This document shows positions 7,105-60,079 of a stretch of 64,000 bases of DNA, piece by piece. Both the position numbers and the translations under genes were made by a program. The stretch comes from Vermamoeba vermiformis. Taxonomy: Eukaryota. Location of the stretch: NCBI GenBank assembly GCA_045837725.1, contig JBEWZL010000209.1, positions 186,001-250,000 on the forward strand, read 5' to 3'. Each line of letters begins with the position of its first letter. The stretch's first letter is position 1. Under the pieces are notes generated by a model, which did no database searches, was not told the origin of the DNA, and was given only the letters and a program-made list of their open reading frames with translations.

Positions 7105-8002
7105 CTATTCCTTGTGCTGGTCGTGCACATCCGCAACGCTGTGTTCAATCTCGGAGTGCATGCCGACCAGTTCAGGGTGCGCGAGTGGATCAGTTTGATG
7201 GTGCTCTTCGGTCATATGATCAGGCTGACTCACGTGGCCTGCATCGTGACTTGACTCCTCCTGCGAGCCCTTCTTAGAGTCGTCGAGATATGCTTCACTG
7301 TCCGCGCCCATTGACGCGTTGTTGTCGCCTGAAGACGCCTCGTCCTCGCCCTCTTCGCCATTCTTCTTGCGTTGAAATCGACCGCTCTTGCCTCGCCGCC
7401 TGTTTGTGGCGTGTTTGTGGCGAGATTCGTGTAAATATGGCTGTAGAAGATGATAAGACTCTATATCAGTGAATATTATGGCATCACTACGCACCTTGCG
7501 CTGTTTTGGCAGTTTGTTTTCTTGTTCGAGTTTAGCGCGTTGTTGTCGTCGCTTAAGAATGCGGTGGTATTGTTTGGCATTGACGTATAACGGTTCCTCT
7601 ACTACTTCGGGCTGTGCTACTCGTTGTGTATACAAATTGAGGTTCATATAGTTGTGTGCTGCATTTTCCTGTAGATGTGACATCCGCGTCAGCAAAATCG
7701 AAATAACGCAATGCACACTCCGGGCATGAATCGGAAATAATTATCTCAGCACAGTAGATTAATACTTACAGGAATTTGTGCGTCTCCGTGCAAGGCGTGT
7801 AACGAGCTGGCCTGATGCACTGCCGCGTCATCTACGAAAAGTGAATGAATTAATTCAAATAAACTCCGCAACGAACTAAAAAAATTATAATAATATTTGT
7901 ACTAAAAATAAAATTAATTTCTCAACGATTTATACCTGCAGGCGCATCTTGCGGAACGAACGTCTGATTCGGTGCAGTTGCAAATGCATATTGCGCGGCC
8001 AT
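7105..8002 (-). CDS. NFYA: CCAAT-binding factor subunit A (NF-YA/HAP2), multi-exon
   Basis: [25 protein letters not shown]...[24 protein letters not shown] is the CBF-B/NF-YA domain. Probable ATG at 8002 (MAAQYAFAT). Confidence 0.93.
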
Positions 8003-11300: not shown

Positions 11301-12815
11301 TTGTACCGGAGTAATGTCCGTCAACGAGACATAAGGAAAGATCATTCCTGCGTAGCTCTGAAAAAAATCAAAATAATTAGAAATAATTCCAAAATATTGT
11401 TTATAATACCTTTAACGGGGCTACTAATAATGGCGCTGATATACAACAATTGCCGACATCTTTGGCGGGCTGTCCGAAGAACAAGATCCGATTTCTAAAT
11501 TAGGTAATCGTTTTTAATAAAGTGAGGCGAAATAGATTCTCGGTTCACTTACTCTAATAATAGGCCATACCAAATGTACATTGTGTCTACACCGAAGCGG
11601 GTAATTAACTGCGTCAAGTTCGCACCGGGCAGATCAACCCCGCTCACGGTTGGTGGAACTATCAAAGAAAAAGTTTTGTCGTTCCATTTGAAGGTCTCTT
11701 TCTTCTTCCAATTTGTATTTAACGCCTCGTATACTTGCTTTAAGATCGTTGCGTCTTTTGTTTCCTGCTCATACGTAAATACATACGCTTTAACTTCCAA
11801 ATTAGGAAAACTTACCACGAACTTGTGGATCGCCTCGCGCAAGATAGGTTCGTAAATATCGAAGCAAGGACTGCGACTCAACAATAGCATGGCTTTTTGA
11901 ATGGCTCCTCGTTTGGCTAAATTAAATCAATTAATAAAGCGCATCCCGCAAGATTATGGCAAAGTTTGGCTTTACAGCAGATCAAATTAATTAATAGCCC
12001 AACAATTAATATAAAAGGACGAGTGTCGATTGGATGACGTGTTCTTGACGAGCGAATTTTTTGTGCACCGCGCAGCTCCCGATCCGGAGATTTTGCAATT
12101 CGCATGAGATTAAACCAGTATACAACTTTAAAGACGAGGGATTATATAAAATAAAGTACCTTTTGGATCCGGCAGATTGACGAACATGGACAAGCCATAA
12201 ATTATCTCTTCGCTTACGTCACTCTTCTTTGTGGTCGGGAACTCAAATATTCTTCGTTCCTTTGATCTTTTGATCGCTATATACGTGTGGTCTTCGCTCG
12301 TAATATGAGAACCTATAACACAAAAATTAAATTAGCTCGATCGAGGCAATACGCTGTGATTCAATTTCACTTTCTACAGCGATTTCAAATCAAAAAGATT
12401 ACGTTCGGATTTTGTATGAATTAAGGTATCGAAATAGCTGATTTAATTATTATTATAAGAGTCCCGACCGTGAACGGCGGATTTATTATGCTATGAAATC
12501 TTACCATCTGGTAGAGCCAAGTCCGCTAAGTTTGGTTCATTATGCGGAAATTCGACTTCTTTTGGATATACTTCGGTCAATGTATTGCCACTGGTTATGT
12601 CAAACTCTGTGAAGGAGAGATTTAGTACCGTACCGTAACGCGAAAAACAAATTAATGCCAATAATTATATTCCCGTTGTATATATGATTTATTATCAATA
12701 AATATCATATTAAAATGCTCATAATTACGATGGGAATATTAGGCAATAAATTCGTTAGATCGCGAATTTACAACGTACCTGCAATGGCTATTGCGAAAAT
12801 AGGTTGGTCTGCCAT
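8324..12815 (-). CDS. DENN-family (AVL9/DENND11/Afi1-like) protein with ARM-like repeats and a disordered basic C-terminus, multi-exon
   Basis: N-terminus AIAEFDITSGNTLTEVYP...LADLALPDGSH (uDENN-like) and cDENN-like IFPYVSLTD...YICATTNAVFE. ARM-like segments VIGPLLRDNSAQVRKYAAAIVAQLA and GGIHRLIKAI. Confidence 0.7.
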
Positions 12816-13491
12816 TTTGTTATTTATGAATAGAAACTACTCGTATTGCTGTAGAATCACTATGTCACGGGATGGGCCTTGAGCAACCAACTAAGCAAGA
12901 CTGAATAATTCCCCAGTGACGTTGGATTTGAGTTTGTTAAACGAGCAGTTGCTGTGCTGTAAGTCTTCTGAGAACTTAAATACCCGTTCTACGCGTAATA
13001 CCCAAACAACAACGGACACATGTATCTCGAGGGCGAGGTGCAAGACCACGTGACGAACCACGTGCTTAGAACGGAGATTTCATATGATCCTGAAATAAGA
13101 TCAACAAAATTTGCATATAATTAATCAGTCTTAGATATTTGACATTATGGTACCATACGTCGTGAATTCTTGATGGACCCCGGCAGCATTTTATTATTTG
13201 GCAGGCAAGTGAGTCGATCTGGCAATAGCCCTGCTCAATCGCCTTCTTCGTCACAACTCCCGCCACAAATAGTACACCATAAACCCAGGTAAGCATATGC
13301 TTAGCGTAAAGCTTTATTTTTAATTGAACAATTGTTGCAATTTGATCGATCAGAATTTATAATTCCGAGGCCTAAAATAATTATTTACCGCCACAAACCA
13401 GCGCGAATAGTAGTGGGCCTACGTTTATACCGAATATAATTGTCTGTAAATATTTTTGTAGTCAGATCGGCTGATATTTTGTTGCAACAGA

Positions 13492-14843
13492 ATGGTGCAG
13501 TCTCTGGGGGACGAGGAAAACTCCGCGTCAGATAAACTCGAAGTGGTAGAGACGACGCCCCAAGATCCTCGAGATCCAACACCGACTCAGACGCAAGAGC
13601 TTGAGTACAATAGTCCTCCAAGTCCTACTCGCCAAGTGCGCAGTACTCGCAGTACGCCAAAGGCGGCACGCGTTGTGGTGATACCAAAAAAACATCTCAT
13701 AGTGGTACAGACTAGAGAGGCTGAGGAGTTTGAAAAGGACAGCACGAGGCACACGTACAACAATAATAACAATAATACCAATTGGCACTCTGCAAATAAC
13801 AACAACACAGACGACTTCGATGGTGATGATGCCATGGACGAGAGCTACGAGGACAATGCCGCAGATGAACACAGCCATGACGAGCACATGTCTGAAGGGG
13901 ACGAAGATGTAGATATTGAAGCACTAGACGCTGACTTTGCGCAAGAAAATTACGAACCAACTCCAGACCCACTTAGTTTTCTAGATGATGAGTACTACAC
14001 ACGTCCTCCGCTTCGATCGAAAGGCAAAGGTACGCTGGGGAAGAGAGCCAAGGGCAAGGCCTATAATGCTGGTGGCAAGGCTCCACGCGCTCCATCTGGT
14101 CGTGGCAAAGCCCCACGAGCTCCATCTGGTGCTGGCAAAGCTCCTGCAGTCAGTCCAAGAGAGAAGCGTGATCAAGAACAGCGCGTCAAGTTCTTGAATG
14201 AATTACCAAATAACAACAATGCTGCTAAAGCCAAGCCGAAGAAGAAAAAAAAGAACAATGAGCTCGGCCTCATGCCTGTAGGGAAAAAACCAGAGAATAA
14301 TGATGCACGTATGTACTAATATCGTTGCTATTACAACACAATACTAATATTCTGCGTTAGCTGCAAAGAAAAAAAAGAAACTAGGTATAAAACATCAGAA
14401 ATTAGCGTATTTGTTACTAACAACTTGCAGAAAAATGGCACAAAGAGGTGATACTGTACCAACGAAGCGGTAAATTATTGATCCCGAAGAGGAGCTTCCA
14501 AAACTTGGTAGGTACTCTAACAACTAGGTTAATTAATTGACTCGCTACAGGTACGTGAGATTGTTCATGTCAGGCTGATGGAAAACTATAAATGGGCCCG
14601 TACAAGCTTAGAGGCCCTTCAATGGGCAACTGAAGACTGGGTTAGCGAACACCTTGATCTGACTAATCTGTGCACCATACATGGTGAGTACACGCCAACC
14701 TTTGTCGTACATGTATTTTAATTGTTTTAGCAAAACGAAGTACAGCTATGGTGTCAGACAGCCAATTGGTGCGAGTGATCCGTGGGAAAATGTCACACGT
14801 AAAAGATTCTATCGTGCCTGCACTTCCTCCTCCTCCTTTGTGA
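13492..14843 (+). CDS. Divergent histone H3 variant (candidate CenH3/CENP-A) with a ~280-aa N-terminal extension, 387 aa
   Basis: Exons 13492-14308, 14361-14384, 14431-14507, 14551-14683 and 14731-14843 (all GT-AG, 1164 nt in frame). The C-terminus KEVILYQRSGKLLIPKRSFQNLVREIVHVRLMENYKWARTSLEALQWATEDWVSEHLDLTNLCTIHAKRSTAMVSDSQLVRVIRG aligns by eye with the H3 histone fold. Confidence 0.88.
14071..14145 (+). repeat. 30-nt coding tandem repeat (2.5 copies) encoding xGKAPRAPSG
   Basis: ggtggcaaggctccacgcgctccatctggt / cgtggcaaagccccacgagctccatctggt / gctggcaaagctcct. Confidence 0.9.
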
Positions 14844-14942
14844 AGCTCACGCCACCTTTCATTTTTGATTTGTTTTATTTTTTGTAAATAGCTAGCCAAA
14901 TGTAGTTGTAAATGAGTTCAGTCGCAAGTTCGTCTATTTATT

Positions 14943-16339
14943 TTACAGCAGGGCAATAATATAGACCTTCCAGCTCTCTGTCTGCTCTATCGAAGTGACC
15001 TCTTCATACGCGCTCTTAACATCGTCTCTGTCTTCATTCTGTGCCGCAAATCATCAATATTTGTTGTTTTGAATTTAAACAATGATGATGACTTACATCC
15101 GCCCACCAGACTTTTACGTCTTTGAATCCAGCCTCGTACATTGCTTCGATGACTTCGGGTAACATCCACAAGCGGAAGTCGTATGTAAACGCTGCTTTCA
15201 TACGCGAGCCATCGCTGAATTAATGTTATTAATAAATGAATATATTAGAACAAAAAAGACGTACCTAAACTTAAACGAGACTTGTCCCTTCAAGCGGTGA
15301 CTGTACGCGTCAAAGCTGGTCTGTTCCCAGATTTTCTGTCCCAGGATTAATAACTTATATATCATCGCACTCACAACACAACACACCGTCAGACTCTCAG
15401 TGACTCGCACTTCTTTCTTCAGCTCGCCTAATGACGACGTGCCGCCCAACAGATCGCACACGAATATTCCGTCAGGTTTCATGCCCTTCTGAACGTTGGT
15501 GAAGTACTAACGACAATGCGAGTCAATATTAAGGAATAGTCGAAGGTCATATATGGCACGTACTGTGATGAGCTTAGTCCGCGAGTGGAAGTAACAAATG
15601 CTGTAATTAACGGCCACTAATATATCGCACTTCTTGCCCAGGGTGTTGGTCACGTCGTTGACATCGCGCACAAACAGCTCCATTCTGCGATTGGCCACGC
15701 TGTTAGTATGCATGTGATTGCAGTATGTATATCGTATACCTATCACCGGCAGGACCTGCATCAACCTTATTATGTTCCAAGCCCCATTTGATCACGCTCG
15801 GGTCAATATCAAGGCCTGTCAGTGGTCAATGCGCTGAACTCACGGTTGATCATACACGTGTGCGTACCGTAAGCAAATCGTTCAGCATCGCCTTTGACCC
15901 ATTCAGCACACAAATAAGCAGTGCCGCAGAAATCTTCTCGCTAAAAGCAACATGTCAGATCGCGATCGAGTTCGGTGTGCTATCACCAGGATTTTTATTA
16001 TACTTAATTTCATAAATATATTATCATATTAACATAACGTGATATAAATATAATCTTATTCACAAGTTTAGAATTACTGATAATTTTAATTCGGTTTAAC
16101 TTTTTTATTACTACTTACCAATATGAGGGGCTTTCTGTGTCTAGCGGTAGTAAACACCTTCACAAATAATCGAATCTCTTCTTTGGGCGATTGAATGGCC
16201 TAAATAAAGGTTAACGGAGATCCAGATCAGATCACTTTCTAATTACCATTTGATACATTTGATGAGGGTCAGCTTTGGATGCCATTGTCTCGACGGGGCC
16301 GCCCTTCTTCTTTCTTGGCTTTTCCTTATCTTGTTCCAT
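14943..16339 (-). CDS. Class I SAM-dependent methyltransferase, multi-exon
   Basis: Spliced motifs ILREDFCGTAYLCAEW, GLDIDPSVIKWG, CDILVAVNYSICYFH and MKPDGIFVCDLLGG. Ends ESWKVYIIALL*. Confidence 0.8.
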
Positions 16340-16942
16340 TGTTTCGTGCTGTTGCTGTGCGTTTTGTTTAATGCAAGTCCCGATCGGATCACCACTACCA
16401 CTCGAGCTGAACACCCTCGCCTACTGACAGCGACTTCCTCAAATAATTCCACTTACATTATTAATATTACACTCATAAATAAGACGACTGTTCTAGAATA
16501 GAAAGTGCAGGACAACCAAATCTAATTATTTTACAGCAGGCATTAAAATATTCATTTAAATTTTTACATCCATGACACAGCCACCTCACGAGACCGACTA
16601 ACTTTTTTTTGCGCTTTTAGTTAATTTATTACCTTATATCTCGGGCCATAGTCAGATCAGGAATAAAATCTAACGTGCTCGTGCAATCTCCTAGGCATGC
16701 TGACGCTTCGTCAGTGGTAAGAGAATAACATTAATGCGAATATTTGTCAATATGAGGCGTGTGCATGCCAACAAAACAATCGAACACTGACCGATCAAGT
16801 TCCCGCTCAATTTTTTTAAACCAGAACTGACCGTTGCAAACTTGGCCAAATATAAATACGCTTGTCGTAGTGCGATTCTAATTCTCAACCGCAACACAAC
16901 GAATAGCCAAGTTAATAGTCCAGCGACTACTATTATTTAAAC

Positions 16943-17745
16943 ATGTCTGCTGATTTCCTCGCTCCCGATGTGATCAAGAAGGTGTTTGTAGAGCTCAAAG
17001 ACCTCACTCAAAACCCTCCTGAAGGCATCAAGGTCATTATCAACGAAGAAGACGTGACCGACGTTCAAGCCCTCATTGACGGCCCAGGTAATTATGAGTT
17101 TTTTATTCAAATTCCGGATTTGATATTTATTTCTAATGAGTCCAGCTTACTGATCGTTTTAATAGAGGACACACCCTTTGCCGGTGGTGTTTTTAAAATG
17201 AAGTTGAAGCTCGGCTCTGAATATCCTCAAGCTCCTCCAAAGGGCTACTTCTTGACCAAGATCTTCCATCCAAACGTCTCCGACAAGGGAGAGATTTGCG
17301 TCAACACGCTTAAGAAGGACTGGAAGGCTGATATGGGTATTCGACACTTGCTCTTGGTAAGTAAATCACTGTGCAGTCGTCTGCATTGGCGGATGCATCG
17401 ATCTAACTCGTGTAACGTGTATTGACTGTGCTCTTGCTTTATTAGACCATCAAGTGCTTGCTCATGCAACCCAATCCCGAGTCTGCTTTGAACGAAGAAG
17501 CTGGCAAGTTGTTGCTCGAAGCCTACGAGGATTACTTCAAGCACGCGCAACTCATGACTCAAATCCACGCTTTGAAGAAGGCTCCTGCTGCTACACCCGC
17601 CACTAGCACTGCTACTACCTCATCGGATGCTGACGCTAAGAAGGCTCGCGTCGAGAAGGAGAACGTGCCTCGCAACAAGGCCGCTGCTCCCACCGCCGCA
17701 TCTGCTGCCAACAACAAGTTGAAGAAGAGTCTTAAGCGACTTTAA
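16943..17745 (+). CDS. UBE2S: Ubiquitin-conjugating enzyme E2 S
   Basis: UBC fold [49 protein letters not shown] and the diagnostic C-terminus KKSLKRL. Two introns. Confidence 0.95.
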
Positions 17746-17951
17746 ATTCAACGCTACCCTCATGTACATCAATGTATTATAAACCCTCTTATTACAAATC
17801 GGATCTGCTTTTCATTTATTGTTTCGAAAAGGCCAAGAAAGAGCACAACGAGCTTGATTATTGTTTTGTTCTTTACTCGTTGTTGCAGGTCCATAATTAC
17901 AGCCACATATAATAGAGATACACAGAGGCAATATAACAGCACACAAGCACC

Positions 17952-46796: not shown

Positions 46797-47702
46797 CTAT
46801 TTCCCTTTTTCTTCGGGTTCTTCTTTGTGTTCATGTAAATCATGCTCTCCTTTAGTCTCCTTCTCCTCCGGTTCATCGTCCCGTTTCGATTTCTTTGCTT
46901 TGCCTTTTTCTTGCTCTCCTCTACGATTCATGACAGTCTGGAAAGCGGCGATGAGGGTTTGTATCTGCCGCTCTAACTCCTCATTCTCATTGAGGAGTTG
47001 GTGGTTGTTCTCTTGCAATTGCCGATTCTGATCTTGTAATTGCTGAATCTGAGCTTGCGAATCATTGTTATTATTTTGTAACTGTTCTTGTAAATTATTG
47101 TTGTTATTTTGCAGTTGCTGAATCTGAGTTTGCGAGTCGTTGTTATTATTTTGCAACTGTTGAATCTGTTCTTGTAAATTATTGTTGTTATTTTGCAGTT
47201 GCTGAATCTGCGTTTGCGAGTCGTTGTTATTATTTTGTAGCTGTTGATTCTGTTCTTGTAAATTATTGTTATTATTTTGCAATTGTAGAAATTGAGCGAG
47301 CAAATTATTGTTATTATTTTGCAGTTGTAGAAATTGAGCGAGCAATGCTACATTATTCGGTGGTACATAAGCAGCAGGATTTTGGGAGTAGGATACATAT
47401 TGCTTTTGCAGTTCACCCCAGGAAATTAATCCCGCGGGAAAATGAATGACCACCTGGTTGTTGCGGTATCCACCTTTTGAAACGCCAACATGATCGGCAA
47501 TCTTGGTTGGGGAAACCAACGCTGCCAATGGATTCCCAGGATCAATGAAATATACGCCTTGGATATTATGAAACTGGGGATGGACGTATGACAAAGTGAA
47601 GTTTGTTGTTTGGTTAGAGTCCGTGAAGGTAACGAGAGAACCAGCAGGAATGAGCAAAATGTCACGAGCAAACCGCCACAATTCAACGGGAAGGTTGGCC
47701 AT
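46797..47702 (-). CDS. Hypothetical intronless protein: ~100-aa globular N-terminus (RAMA-like?) plus Gln/Asn coiled-coil repeats
   Basis: 301-aa ATG ORF with repeated LQNNNNN(L/D)xxQIQQ units and a charged C-terminus. Confidence 0.65.
   Translation of the reverse strand: MANLPVELWRFARDILLIPAGSLVTFTDSNQTTNFTLSYVHPQFHNIQGVYFIDPGNPLAALVSPTKIADHVGVSKGGYRNNQVVIHFPAGLISWGELQKQYVSYSQNPAAYVPPNNVALLAQFLQLQNNNNNLLAQFLQLQNNNNNLQEQNQQLQNNNNDSQTQIQQLQNNNNNLQEQIQQLQNNNNDSQTQIQQLQNNNNNLQEQLQNNNNDSQAQIQQLQDQNRQLQENNHQLLNENEELERQIQTLIAAFQTVMNRRGEQEKGKAKKSKRDDEPEEKETKGEHDLHEHKEEPEEKGK
47030..47345 (-). repeat. Coding tandem repeat of about 42 nt (14 aa, LQNNNNN...), roughly 7 imperfect copies
   Basis: Recurrent ttgttattattttgca / aattattgttgttattttgcag units on the + strand. 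Confidence 0.85.
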
Positions 47703-48228
47703 AGTGAATGTTGCTGAGTAATAATTATAACAACCGGGTGAATTCCTTTTTATTCTTTTGATTGAGTTAAGCCCTGATTTCCTTAAGTCACGTGATGTGT
47801 CAAAGAAGATTCCAGAAGAATTACCGAACTTTCGAATTGCCTCTGTTTATGTTCATCGTCATCTCCAATGGTTTATTTTGTAATTTTTGGCGTATATGAA
47901 AAGAGTTTTTTTAAAACTCCGATCGGCTCTGATCTAGCGCTTTATTTTAAATCGATCTGCATAACCGAGCTTCCACCAATAACCAATTCCATTTTTCAGA
48001 CCTTTGCCAGTGTATCAAATAAGGTGACTTGCTTTATTAGCATCGCCTCGAATTTAGTGGATTTTTATGTGCCGCAATTTTGCCAATCGAGATAAAGCCT
48101 TTGTATCTACCGCAAGGTCAATATCGCGTATGACCAATGATGTCAAATTTGTCAAACTCGCCACAAGATCCGGGGTGCCTGGCTCGAAATACTTTGAATC
48201 TCAAGCATAACAAGCTGTGAGTGTCGTT

Positions 48229-53495: not shown

Positions 53496-55499
53496 ATGGA
53501 GGCTAGGAAAAAGTCCTCCAAAGGCAAGTCCTTCCTGATGGTGCCCGAAGGTAAATTTAATCCACTCGTAGCCAGTCCTAATTTAATTATTAGGGCAACT
53601 GATCACCGTAAAAAATCTACCGAACAAGCAGTCATATAATAAAGGCCAAAGCAATTATTGGTTCGATGGCCAGAAGAATATTTTTTATTTTCGAGAACAC
53701 GGACAAAAGAAAGAGAAATCAATTCAACTCTCATTCGACCAAGGAAAATACTCACATGAAGGAGTGTCGTCATCGAATATTTACGAGATTATTGTTCGCA
53801 CGAGCATATTTTCATCGTTGTTTGGCTCAACCAGCTCTGGCGATTGTCATGTTGCAGTGACCGAAGAATCGTTGAAACTTCCCTTTGAAGAACAGCCGTG
53901 GTTCATTGGTGCAGTCGACAAAGGCGAGCTCAAATCGATTGAACTAAGTAAGCTCCTAAAACTCGTTGTCTACGCATTATTCTGACGCTCTTTTTGCAGC
54001 GGAGACTCGCATGTTTTTTACACGGGCAAAAGGACCCAGAATGTATCTTCATTGGACCACGACAAAAAAGATGAAGACCCCGGGACGTCCAATACTTCTC
54101 GAGTCAAATGACCTGTCGTTAGTGCTTCCTCGTGACGAGTTCATGACTGCAATGTACAATGGCGGAACAATCAGACATCGTACTGAAGTGTTGTTTTGTC
54201 GCCGTATCATGGAGAACAACTTGGAAGTTGCTAAAAGCATATTCGCACAAGGTAAGACCACGAGATGAATATACTATGACGCTTAACTAACGCGTGTCAT
54301 CATTTTTGCGTGACAGGTGTCAATCTTGCTAGCCTCGTCCTGCGTGACCCAAACATCATTTCTTACTATATCGAGAACACTCCGCTCGAATCAATTAACG
54401 AGGAGTTGCTCATGTGGCTGCTTGAGAGTGGTGTGCCGGTGGATCGGTACAAACTTAACACAATTTTCTCGTAATTTAACTGACGACCGTTCGCAGGGAC
54501 GACAAAGAAATCATCAATGTTGCCGCATCAAAGTGCAGCGATATAGTGATTGAAGCATTGCTCGAGCACGGTGTCAAAATCACGCAGCAAATTGCACAAA
54601 GAGCGATTACGCGCAACATTCCACCGCACAGAATGCGAATTTACTTCGAGTCCCTAGTATCTGGGCCATATATTTCGATCTCTGATTACTTCAAAATGAT
54701 CAAAGACTGCAAAGACACCGATTACACCAACAGAGTATTGGTTACGCTTGCGTGGAGATATGGCAACGATGATAACTTGTTCAAACAGCTTCCTAAAGAG
54801 CTCGTGCAACACATCATAAGCTTTGGAGTCGACGATGAATACCCGTGGCTTGACTACGTGGACTCCCTTAACTTAGCTTACCTGACACATATCGATTATC
54901 ATTATCGAGTCCTCAGTCTCGGAGAGCTCATCAAGCTAGCTGTGATTGGGTGGCACTATTGGACTAAGCTTGATAGTAAATCAATCGACTTCATATTCCT
55001 GCGCCTCATCGACAACAAACAGAGCTACTACACCCAACCAAATTTCTACGAAAACTTGTCACCCTCGCAAATGAATCACCTTGTGTCGTGGTTAATCAAA
55101 TTATCAACGCGACAGCAGTTCGATCACCAAGTCTTTGTCAAATCGAGTTTGATGACGTACCTCCTCAACAACGAGAAGTCACTGCCAGTCGTTAAATCAC
55201 TCTTAGACGCACGCGTGATCAAGCGAGAGTGGTGGTTAGAGCCCGCAGACTTTGTCCATTGGCTACCATCCTCGCCAGTCCCGTTATCTTGGCACACGGT
55301 CAAACCTGTCCAGCCACACAAGTCACTAATACAGCTGTTGATACGCGAGAACTTGATGCCCGAGCAATGCACGCTGTACAATCGAGCTGTTGGCCTGAGT
55401 GCCTACCTCCGAAGAAATGGCAATACTGCAGAGGTACAAGCCGTAATCGACTTTATTGCAGAGTGTCGGAACAACTCGAACCACAAAGCATTAAATTAA
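53496..55499 (+). CDS. Hypothetical multi-exon protein, paralog A (ankyrin-like segment and F-box-like LPKEL motif)
   Basis: Clean spliced frame from ATG 53496; WLLESG/ALLEHG ankyrin-like helices; FKQLPKELVQHIISF. Clear paralog at 58132-60079. Confidence 0.7.
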
Positions 55500-58021: not shown

Positions 58022-58145
58022 GATCTCAAGATCGACCTCAAAAAAATCAACAAAAATTAACAATTATTAATATAGGTCAATTAATTACCGTCGACAAGCC
58101 TCCTACAAAACAAGCGTACAACAAATGCTTGAGCAATTTTTGGTT
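58022..58145 (+). repeat. Direct repeat copy 2, fused to the truncated 5' end of paralog B
   Basis: Matches 56736-56881 and runs into agcaatttttggttcgatggcc, where identity with paralog A begins. Confidence 0.85.
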
Positions 58146-60079
58146 CGATGGCCAGAAGAATATTTTTTATTTTCGAGAACACGGACAAAAGAAAGAGAAA
58201 TCAATTCAACTCTCATTCGAACAAGGAAAATACTCACATGAAGGAGTGTCATCATCGAATATTTACGAGATTATTGTTCGCACGAGCATATTTTCATCGT
58301 TGTTTGGCTCAACCAGCTCTGCTGATTGTCATGTTGCAGTGACAGAAGAATCGCTGAAACTTCCCTTTGAAGAACAACCGTGGTTCATTGGTGCAGTCGA
58401 CAAAGGAGAACTCAAGCTGTTAGAACAAGGTACGCAGATCCGAAGCGCGATCGAAGCTAGATCCGTTTTGCAACAGACTAACACAATAATTTTGATTATT
58501 ATATAGTATAAATACTACCGCGATTTATCTTTATAGCTAATTTGTTTATTTATGAATTTCTAATAAACTTTTTATCAGCGGAGACACGCATGTTTTTCAC
58601 TCGTGCCAAGGGACCCAAAGTGTATTTACATTGGACCACTACTAAGCGCATGAAGAACCCAGAACGACCAATACTTCTCCAGTCAAATGATCTGTCGTTG
58701 GTGCTTCCTCGCGGAGAATTCATGACCGCAAAGTACAACGGTGGCGCGGTGAATTATCTCAACGAGTTTTTGTTCTATCGATGCGCCGCTGCAAATGACC
58801 TCGCTGGCTTGAAAAGAATTGTCGCTGAGAAAGGTAAGACAGCATAAAATTTTTTGACACGTGTCAACTAAAGTGTCACTCGCAATTGTAGGTGTCAATC
58901 TTGCCAGTCCAATTCTGCACGATCCAAACGTTATATCGTACTATATTAAGAATATACCAAAAGAAGACATCAACGAAGAATTAATTCTATGGTTACTCGA
59001 GCAAGGCCTGTCCATTGACAAGTACGATCCTGGTCCGAACCTCCCTTTTAGTATTAACATTTGAACTATATAGGAGCGACAAAGAGCTCATTCAATTGGC
59101 TATTTCAAAGTGCAGCGAAGTTATCGTCGAATCGTTGTTACAACGAGGGGCCTATTGTTCCGAGTCTATTGCAGCAGATGCGACGAAACGAAATCTCCCA
59201 GTCGATCGATTGAAAGTCTATTGGACGGCCTATTGCAATCAGAAACCGACATTAAGAGATTTCATGGACATTATTCAATATTACAAACAAGACATGCATC
59301 AGAAACAAGTCTTGATCATGTTGGCTTGGCAGCACGGCAACGCGGACAATTATTTCAAATTACTCCCGAAAGAGCTCGTCAAATACATCATTAGCTTTGA
59401 TCTCGGGGAATTAGAAGCGGAACAACCTTGGTTCGAGTTAGCGTTTGAAACGTACAACGGAAAATTTACAGAAATTCCGATGTACAGCGCGGATCCAGTT
59501 TTGCTCAAGTTACTGTCGTTTATATGGAGATATTGGGACGAGGCTACAACAACTTTGAAAGACTTTTTGATTCAAATTATCATCGATCAAGACTATTTTC
59601 ATAACGCGAAGACTGACGTTATGATTTGGATGCATTGGCTGGGCAAATATATTCAACGACGAGATAATTACAATGAATTCGCAGAAAAAATTCTTCGCTC
59701 TAAATTATTCGAGTTCATTTACAGCAGTCCGGATCTGACCTTGATCAAGCACTTGTTGGCAACTGGAATCTTAAAAAAAGATTGGCACACTATAGCAAAA
59801 CGAACGAAGTACAATTCATATGCACTAGTTTGGCGAGCATTTGATTACTCCAACAAAGAGCTGATCGAATTTTTATTCCGAGAAAAAATGATGCCGCTAG
59901 AAGTTAAAAACAAGACGCTAGACACGTACTTGACAGGCCACACAAAAGTTATAATCAATTTCTTTCACGAGATGATTATCAAATATAATTTTGGCGAAGA
60001 ATTTGAAAGAATACGAGCTCGGACTCCCCAGCAGCAAGTTGAGGCCGAGGAGGCGGATCCCATAGAACTTTTTCTCTGA
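58132..60079 (+). CDS. Paralog B of the 53496-55499 gene, 5'-truncated (lacks exon 1 and its ATG)
   Basis: Near-identical to paralog A over 58132-~58420, same intron positions, FKLLPKELVKYIISF motif, open last exon. The first in-frame exonic ATG is at ~58590. Confidence 0.6.

Follow-up and report, generated by a model that had tools for sequence, protein, structure and literature searches.

The window, which is the whole stretch of 64 kb analysed here and has a GC content of mostly 33-52%, carries at 13173-14843 on its plus strand a gene for a protein with a histone H3 fold. The gene consists of six exons and five GT-AG introns. Positions 12400-17900 were compared with four public sequencing runs, of which three (X1-X3, called RNA as the tool's guess only) show splice joints, and the fourth (X21, from a relative) covers none of the five introns. 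As the contigs of X1-X3 skip GT..AG stretches, they are considered to be spliced. Transcript support, the check proposed for the junctions in the initial annotation, was obtained for all five introns, each as a joint in two or three of these runs.

Exon 1 (13173..13288) encodes residues 1-39, including LFGR and SP motifs, and is separated from exon 2 (13491..14308; residues 39-312) by a phase-2, GT..AG intron of 202 nt (13289..13490), for which an in-frame joint was detected in X1 and X2. The joint of intron 2 (14309..14360; 52 nt) was found in X1 and X3, and in X2 with six other letters adjoining. Exon 3 (14361..14384) is a 24-nt microexon for residues 312-320 with both flanking joints present, and places a lysine run directly before the alphaN helix. 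Joints of intron 3 (14385..14430; 46 nt) and intron 4 (14508..14550; 43 nt) were present in X1, X2, and X3, and that of intron 5 (14684..14730; 47 nt) in X1 and X3. Exon 4 (14431..14507; residues 320-345) carries alphaN with W47 and K49 and the first part of alpha1 with P63, Q68, and N69 (H3 numbering is used for all fold residues). Exon 5 (14551..14683; residues 346-390) carries the end of alpha1, loop 1 with one additional residue, W84, and alpha2 with W94, W99, D105, L106, T107, C110, and H113. Exon 6 (14731..14843; residues 390-426 and the TGA codon) carries loop 2, alpha3, and a C-terminal extension of 18 residues that ends in a proline run.

At the level of open reading frames, one long plus-strand frame (13462-14319) and three short downstream frames are joined via GT-AG introns, and the product from the ATG at 13173 is a single open frame of 426 residues (47.7 kDa). 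This ATG is the sole in-frame one past the stop codon at 13140-13142; it is a predicted start, as the contigs extend only to 13194, and the surroundings of the ATG at 13492, judged by eye, are more favourable for a start. Most likely the protein is 426 residues long with a tail of about 320 residues, instead of the 387 residues and tail of about 280 residues given initially. The three fold exons of that earlier model stand, matching consecutive thirds of the H3 profile; its start and exon count do not, exon 1 and the microexon having been missed. Four of five alternative splice models break the frame; skipping of the microexon keeps the frame, yet no such joint is among the joints listed. Contigs from three separate studies contain the gene, and its contig depth in X1 was 84.8 against 38.5 for its neighbours, in runs that had been selected for containing it. 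The gene is real: it is transcribed, spliced, open in frame, and encodes an H3 fold. It is a previously unannotated, long-tailed H3 variant of about three times the normal H3 length, as was first claimed; the accompanying claim of a centromeric histone is kept below only as the most likely reading.

On the upstream side, a short intergenic stretch (12960..13172) lies between this gene and a divergent AVL9/DENN-like gene, whose spliced contig ends at 12967 and whose exons match Pfam Avl9/SPA/DENND11. Between 12984 and 13074, this stretch contains three AACGG (on either strand), two CACGTG, and one ACGCGT, which we take to be cell-cycle motifs of the MYB3R/MSA, E-box, and MCB types, respectively. 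Three copies of AACGG compare with 0.29 expected (rank 2 of 512 five-mers), and two AACGG-type clusters were observed in the window against about one expected. The cluster is not significant once all five-mers are counted, and is regarded as a weak lead. On the downstream side, a multi-exon gene on the minus strand (14987-16250) is convergent with the histone gene, shows five CT..AC joints in X1/X2, and looks methyltransferase-like by eye; three of its frames had no Pfam match. It is followed, 2 kb downstream of the histone gene, by a spliced ubiquitin-conjugating E2 gene (16946-17745; Pfam UQ_con), UBE2S-like by eye and present as two haplotypes in X1. An HMG-box gene (1735-2772) and an NF-YA gene (7105-7740) are further chromatin or transcription genes within 12 kb. 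Farther away are a 349-codon minus-strand frame with a tandem QQLQNNNN-type repeat, probably a coiled coil (46797-47846), and two related plus-strand gene copies about 4.5 kb apart (53587-55499 and 58024-60079), with shared frames and, by eye, ankyrin-like stretches.

The N-terminal tail is composed of blocks, and the Asn-rich, acidic, and basic ones reported at first sight were all observed. Residues 1-98 are rich in S, T, and P; residues 117-208 are Asn-rich and then strongly acidic (31 D/E, 2 K/R); and residues 209-320 are basic, with 33 K/R. Exon 2 carries the S/T/P-rich block, the Asn-rich/acidic block, and the start of the basic block. GKAP occurs three times in the basic block (residues 234, 244, and 254), each copy resembling the H3 K14 motif, and the first copy, GGKAPR, equals H3 residues 12-17, a motif found by sequence comparison in canonical H3 tails. 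Two of the three copies are encoded by a 30-nt tandem duplication on the plus strand (14067..14126; 83% identity between the copies). The protein contains nine S/T-P sites, one of them a full CDK site, and neither a KEN nor a D-box. Exon 2 matched no Pfam family and nothing in the Atlas. Its single-sequence AlphaFold2 model has a mean pLDDT of 52.7 and a pTM of 0.17, with one helix at residues about 261-275 and no fold, and the exon 1 model likewise has no fold (pTM 0.27). The tail of about 320 residues is predicted to be disordered, with which the exon 2 model is consistent, as weak evidence because it was run without an alignment.

The relative represented by X21 (90-95% likeness) matches the gene only at 13213-13258. 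Within this segment all three listed differences are at codon position 3 and synonymous. In the loose ends of the X21 sequence, read by hand, L-F-G-R precedes the match and I-V-H-H follows it; the frame is unbroken, and further synonymous changes are present. This synonymous pattern points to selection on the exon 1 peptide. X21 shows no joint, and the tie of its segment to an H3 gene in that organism is putative. The N-terminal exon (13183-13279) is the sole part close enough to X21 (14 reads) to be matched, and its DNA is more conserved there than that of the histone fold.

Residues 321-408 form the fold, and residues 409-426 the hydrophobic, proline-ending C-terminal extension. When tested alone against Pfam, exon 5 gave the Histone family only (E 0.003, below the family cut-off), and its best named Atlas matches belong to the same family. 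Against solved structures, exon 5 matched a chain named 'Histone H3 variant' (9r1d; E 0.0036) and then Cnp1 (E 0.018). The joined fold scored 70.0 bits on an H3-like profile, with the match spanning positions 10-93 of 93, and 78.4 bits on a CenH3-like profile; it is about 40% identical to the references of either kind. An alphaN helix is present, as are the H3-specific stretches YQ.S..LLI, TNLC.IHAKR, and IRG. As judged from this alignment over the length of alphaN and fold, the protein belongs to the histone H3 family. Canonical H3 or H3.3 is ruled out on the predicted sequence, given its 426 residues, W84, 40% identity, and lack of both the ARTKQTARKS tail start and RYRPGT. No other H3-like fold was found in the 64-kb window.

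The profiles were built from 63 distinct H3-type folds from public contigs. Of 152 motif matches in these contigs, 81 had the fold in one uninterrupted piece; L108 was dropped for a read-through intron. Labelled from sequence only, 36 references were H3-like (with Q68, without W84), 21 CenH3-like (without Q68, with W84), and five mixed and used in neither profile. The score difference of the new fold, +8.4 bits toward the CenH3-like set, lies within the leave-one-out range of the CenH3-like references (7.5 to 17.4; n=21) and outside that of the H3-like references (-30.5 to -2.6; n=36). It was reached by none of 1000 randomly diverged H3-like sequences as against 524 of 1000 diverged CenH3-like ones. 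When W84 was scored as F, the difference dropped to +1.4 bits; the lean is also partly circular, because the reference sets were defined by Q68 and W84. The contig collections that were screened for H3 motifs contained other folds of interest. One unrelated contig (L039, 86-1108) is a second long-tailed H3 with mixed features, its fold (Q68, W84, no RYRPGT) ending a 340-codon lysine-rich frame with GKGKGK repeats. Among 34 viral-collection contigs with an H3 motif (L001-L034), most encode a near-canonical H3, and one (L032, 513-902) is CenH3-like with A68, W84, and five additional residues in loop 1.

With respect to single residues, W84, the one-residue lengthening of loop 1, and the retained Q68 and T107 were all seen in the profile alignment as described in the initial annotation. 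CenH3-like features further include the replacement of RYRPGT by a lysine run, W47, K49, P63, W94, and the C-terminal extension; the H3-like residues are Q68 and T107, and T118 is kept as well. E94, kept in all 36 H3-like references, is lost here (W94). The lengthening of loop 1 is minimal, and also occurs in at least two H3-like references (L021 and L030). Of the usual CenH3 marks, an unalignable tail (apart from the short GKAP copies), a longer loop 1, and the change of F84 to W are thus present, and replacement of Q68 and of T107 is absent. All seven residues with roles in the four-helix bundle that forms the tetramer and in loop 2 (C110, H113, R116, T118, D123, L126, and I130) are kept. 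R49, R63, R69, and R83, which have DNA-contact roles in H3, are lost together with the RYRPGT start of alphaN, and E105/D106 are changed to D105 and L106. In a quick tree the nearest row was CenH3-like, at a branch length of 8.46 and with references that include no amoebozoans; in the AU test, grouping with H3-like sequences gave p 0.394 (27 of 63 rows). The tree is uninformative, being unable to place the protein.

Among the 40 of 73 strain differences listed, 17 fall in the tail (10 of them nonsynonymous), none in the fold, and three in the C-terminal extension, and the indels listed within the gene are of 9, 3, and 6 nt, all multiples of three. In run X1, two equal-length forms were observed for a loop-2 patch on the plus strand (14731..14752), with five amino-acid differences within 22 nt. 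By hand translation, the second form reads H-G-K-R-K-T-L-R-T-S-D against H-A-K-R-S-T-A-M-V-S-D in the window; H113, K115, R116, T118, and D123 are kept by both, and G-K-R-K-T of the second form resembles loop 2 of the Dictyostelium H3v family. No other copy of the second form was found within the 64-kb window. The depths of the two forms in X1 are 61.8 and 97.9, and those of the two contigs of the neighbouring ubiquitin-conjugating gene are 27.2 and 18.6. This likeness of the two ratios speaks for an allele or a second strain and less for a paralogue, for a dimorphism seen in one run of three and with contig depth as a poor measure. A patch introduced by gene conversion from a paralogue outside the sequence examined is a further candidate explanation.

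Homologue searches gave no orthologue of the protein. No homologue was confirmed among 787 candidates for exon 2 from proteins of 149-476 residues, nor was the single candidate for exon 5 among longer proteins or any of 422 pattern matches in metagenome contigs. Exact look-up of six window ORFs was negative, and there was no Rfam match. The one match in a 50%-representative library was an 11-fold tandem repeat and was discarded. A search for long proteins with an H3 fold gave 6569 matches; among the 120 listed, none is from an amoeba by name, and nearly all are animal or plant proteins with fusion-type scores and domain lists. We found no published description of the gene in the openly accessible papers searched.

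On balance, we favour the reading that this protein is the organism's centromeric H3 (CenH3/CENP-A), of the long-tailed kind known in Dictyostelium; it is the probable one, by a judgement drawn from sequence features. W84, the longer loop 1, the degenerate alphaN, the C-terminal extension, and the unalignable tail occur together, and the profiles lean by +8.4 bits in the same direction, mostly on account of W84. Against it, Q68 is kept, the tail of canonical H3 is echoed by the GKAP copies, the best structure match of exon 5 is the 'Histone H3 variant' ahead of Cnp1, the contig depth of the gene in X1 is not below that of its neighbours in runs chosen for containing it, and in amoebae there are paralogues of CenH3-like sequence that do not mark the centromere.

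Should the centromeric reading hold, the following scheme may be proposed. Since the seven bundle and loop-2 residues are kept, pairing with H4 and tetramer formation would be expected from nucleosome structure; assembly into nucleosomes is not guaranteed, because the contact arginines and E105/D106 are changed. The rewritten loop 1 and alpha2 would be the targeting region, to be recognised by a loading factor of its own. With the R40-G44 latch and R49, R63, R69, and R83 lost, the DNA ends might be held more loosely, as in CENP-A nucleosomes, whose open DNA conformation has been tied to CENP-A N-terminal regions (PMC13192710). Kinetochore or loading proteins may be recruited by the disordered tail and by the C-terminal extension, which is hydrophobic; for docking, the conserved N-terminal LFGR/SP segment is the strongest candidate. 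The basic block, with its GKAP copies and lysine runs, could serve in linker DNA binding or nuclear import. A far more specific version, in which the 320-residue tail stands in for an inner-kinetochore linker or a loading chaperone that the organism lacks, docks via LFGR/SP, and displays three H3K14-like decoys, and in which the gene segregates as two alleles that differ by a rewriting of loop 2 where it contacts DNA, is unlikely as a whole.

The main rival, to which we give a substantial minority weight, is that of an H3 variant particular to its lineage and without a centromeric role, or of a secondary paralogue of CenH3-like type. Such a protein might enter nucleosomes and destabilise their wrapping, either at some loci only or during a single life stage (e.g. 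cyst or sexual), and its acidic and basic blocks and three GKAP copies might bind or decoy chromatin modifiers. The kept Q68 and T107 and the GGKAPR-like repeats would fit this, as would the tolerated five-residue change in loop 2, which might suit a less constrained protein, and the AU test leaves a placement with H3s unrejected. There is also the precedent of amoeba genomes with several divergent H3s of which only one is centromeric, and according to PMC2939574 the position of a divergent H3 in a tree does not suffice to assign it. Against this rival stand the co-occurrence of the five CenH3-like features named above and the lean of the profiles; in addition, the listed strain differences include no substitution in the fold, and the presence of the gene in contigs of three separate studies suggests that it is not obviously stage-restricted.

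Much less probable is a non-nucleosomal histone-fold protein of CENP-T-like or TAF-like type, with a partner other than H4 and the tail as a linker. The loss of many DNA-contact arginines, the heavily rewritten alpha2, and the layout of a long disordered tail with a C-terminal fold, as in CENP-T, agree with it; the alphaN helix, the H3-specific stretches, the 70-78 bits on H3 profiles, and the Histone family as sole Pfam result for exon 5 argue against it. Profiles of CENP-T_C, CENP-S, and TAFs did not match exons 4, 5, and 6, tested as single short exons with low sensitivity. Finally, an artefact or decaying pseudogene, in which short frames happen to be joined to an ORF of low complexity, would account for the missing orthologue in the protein and contig collections searched, and is scarcely credible, being refuted at the RNA level by five of five introns in spliced contigs and opposed by indels in multiples of three, synonymous exon 1 changes in X21, and the single 426-codon frame.

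Within the literature examined, CenH3 has been localised in one amoebozoan only, Dictyostelium, and that protein is also a giant. If the centromeric reading is true and the host is an amoebozoan, the proposal of tails in place of CENP-C/CENP-T could be tested by comparison of two long-tailed CenH3s, and the gene would supply a marker for centromere mapping in this organism. The loop-2 dimorphism would represent a natural allele pair at a DNA-contact loop; if these are alleles of a CenH3, the centromeric histone would be dimorphic within the species at a loop that centromere drive does not usually involve. If not centromeric, the protein would stand out among H3 variants for its size and for the repeated motifs that mimic the H3 tail. 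Under either reading it adds a new case to a known theme and is no new class, giant CenH3 tails being already known.

The CenH3 class is defined by function (PMC3380720), and W84 and a longer loop 1 are its standard marks in PMC4359364, where the T107 mark is printed as position 118. A curated CenpA file (supplement of PMC5579357), of which part of the entries was scored by eye, was used for comparison. In that part, about 85 entries could be scored for Q68; about 9 of these keep it, with none of the five scorable amoebozoan ones among them. T107 is kept in the CenH3 entries of S. pombe, Neurospora, S. cerevisiae, and Phaeodactylum. As fungal CenH3s commonly keep it, T107 is a weak mark; the initial annotation was correct that both residues are retained, and assigned them more weight as H3-like marks than they bear, since both occur in some CenH3s. 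Among the same entries, W47 is found in human, mouse, and Trichomonas, P63 in Dictyostelium H3v1, both Acanthamoeba entries, Entamoeba, Plasmodium, and Drosophila, and loss of E94 in Dictyostelium, Giardia, Plasmodium, Toxoplasma, Tetrahymena, and Paramecium. As read from these sequences, three of the changes seen here, namely loss of RYRPGT, loss of E94, and R63P, are found repeatedly among CenH3s of protists. The Oxytricha entry of the file combines a long tail with Q68.

Tetrahymena Cna1p and the Paramecium CenH3 pair resemble the protein here in that they keep Q68, have lost E94, and are extended both in loop 1 and at the C-terminus, and Cna1p has W84 as well, so that Q68 is compatible with CenH3. 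The ends of the Tetrahymena entry (TTHE023279) match the CNA1 primers given in PMC3144370, and the two Paramecium entries with Q68 are taken to be CenH3a/b of PMC4770206, where Paramecium CenH3 is described as 44% identical to H3. Unlike the present protein, Cna1p and the Paramecium proteins have far shorter tails, and Cna1p retains R-F-R-P-G before alphaN; the likeness is likely to be convergence, as they belong to a different supergroup. Human CENP-A, S. pombe Cnp1, and Acanthamoeba ACAS005142 have W84, a longer loop 1, and a divergent tail as found here, and W47/K49 in alphaN are shared with human CENP-A. Compared with CenH3/CENP-A in general, Q68 and T107 are retained here, the tail is several times longer, and the fold, about 40% identical, is no closer than to H3.

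Fold divergence at the same level is also observed for non-centromeric H3s of protists, i.e. Dictyostelium H3v2, the extra Naegleria CENP-A paralogues, and 9r1d. H3v2 (96 residues) and 9r1d chain A (138 residues) are both without a giant tail. H3v2 is not nuclear according to PMC2995078, and two Naegleria CENP-A paralogues are described as down-regulated or undetected in mitosis.

The closest layout is that of the Dictyostelium discoideum CenH3 (H3v1, DDB_G0291185), which has 619 residues (Dubin et al. 2010, PMC2995078) against 426 here, so that the large Dictyostelium CenH3 cited in the initial annotation does give a precedent for the size. Both tails are very long and unalignable, with S/T/P-rich, acidic, and then basic blocks, and both proteins end in an H3 fold with a poorly conserved alpha2, P63, and loss of E94. 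H3v1, in the entry scored, lacks Q68, W84, and the longer loop 1, all three of which are present here; by eye the compared tail sequences show no similarity, and the likeness is one of layout, with orthology as a candidate explanation only. In a Dictyostelium review, the long tail and C-terminal fold of CenH3 are likened to the layout of CENP-T, CENP-C and CENP-T are given as not found, and the CenH3 tail is proposed as their replacement. A further precedent for a long tail whose N-terminal part replaces a loading factor is C. elegans HCP-3, the tail of which binds KNL-2 in place of Scm3/HJURP, as stated in 10.1101/2020.12.28.424576.
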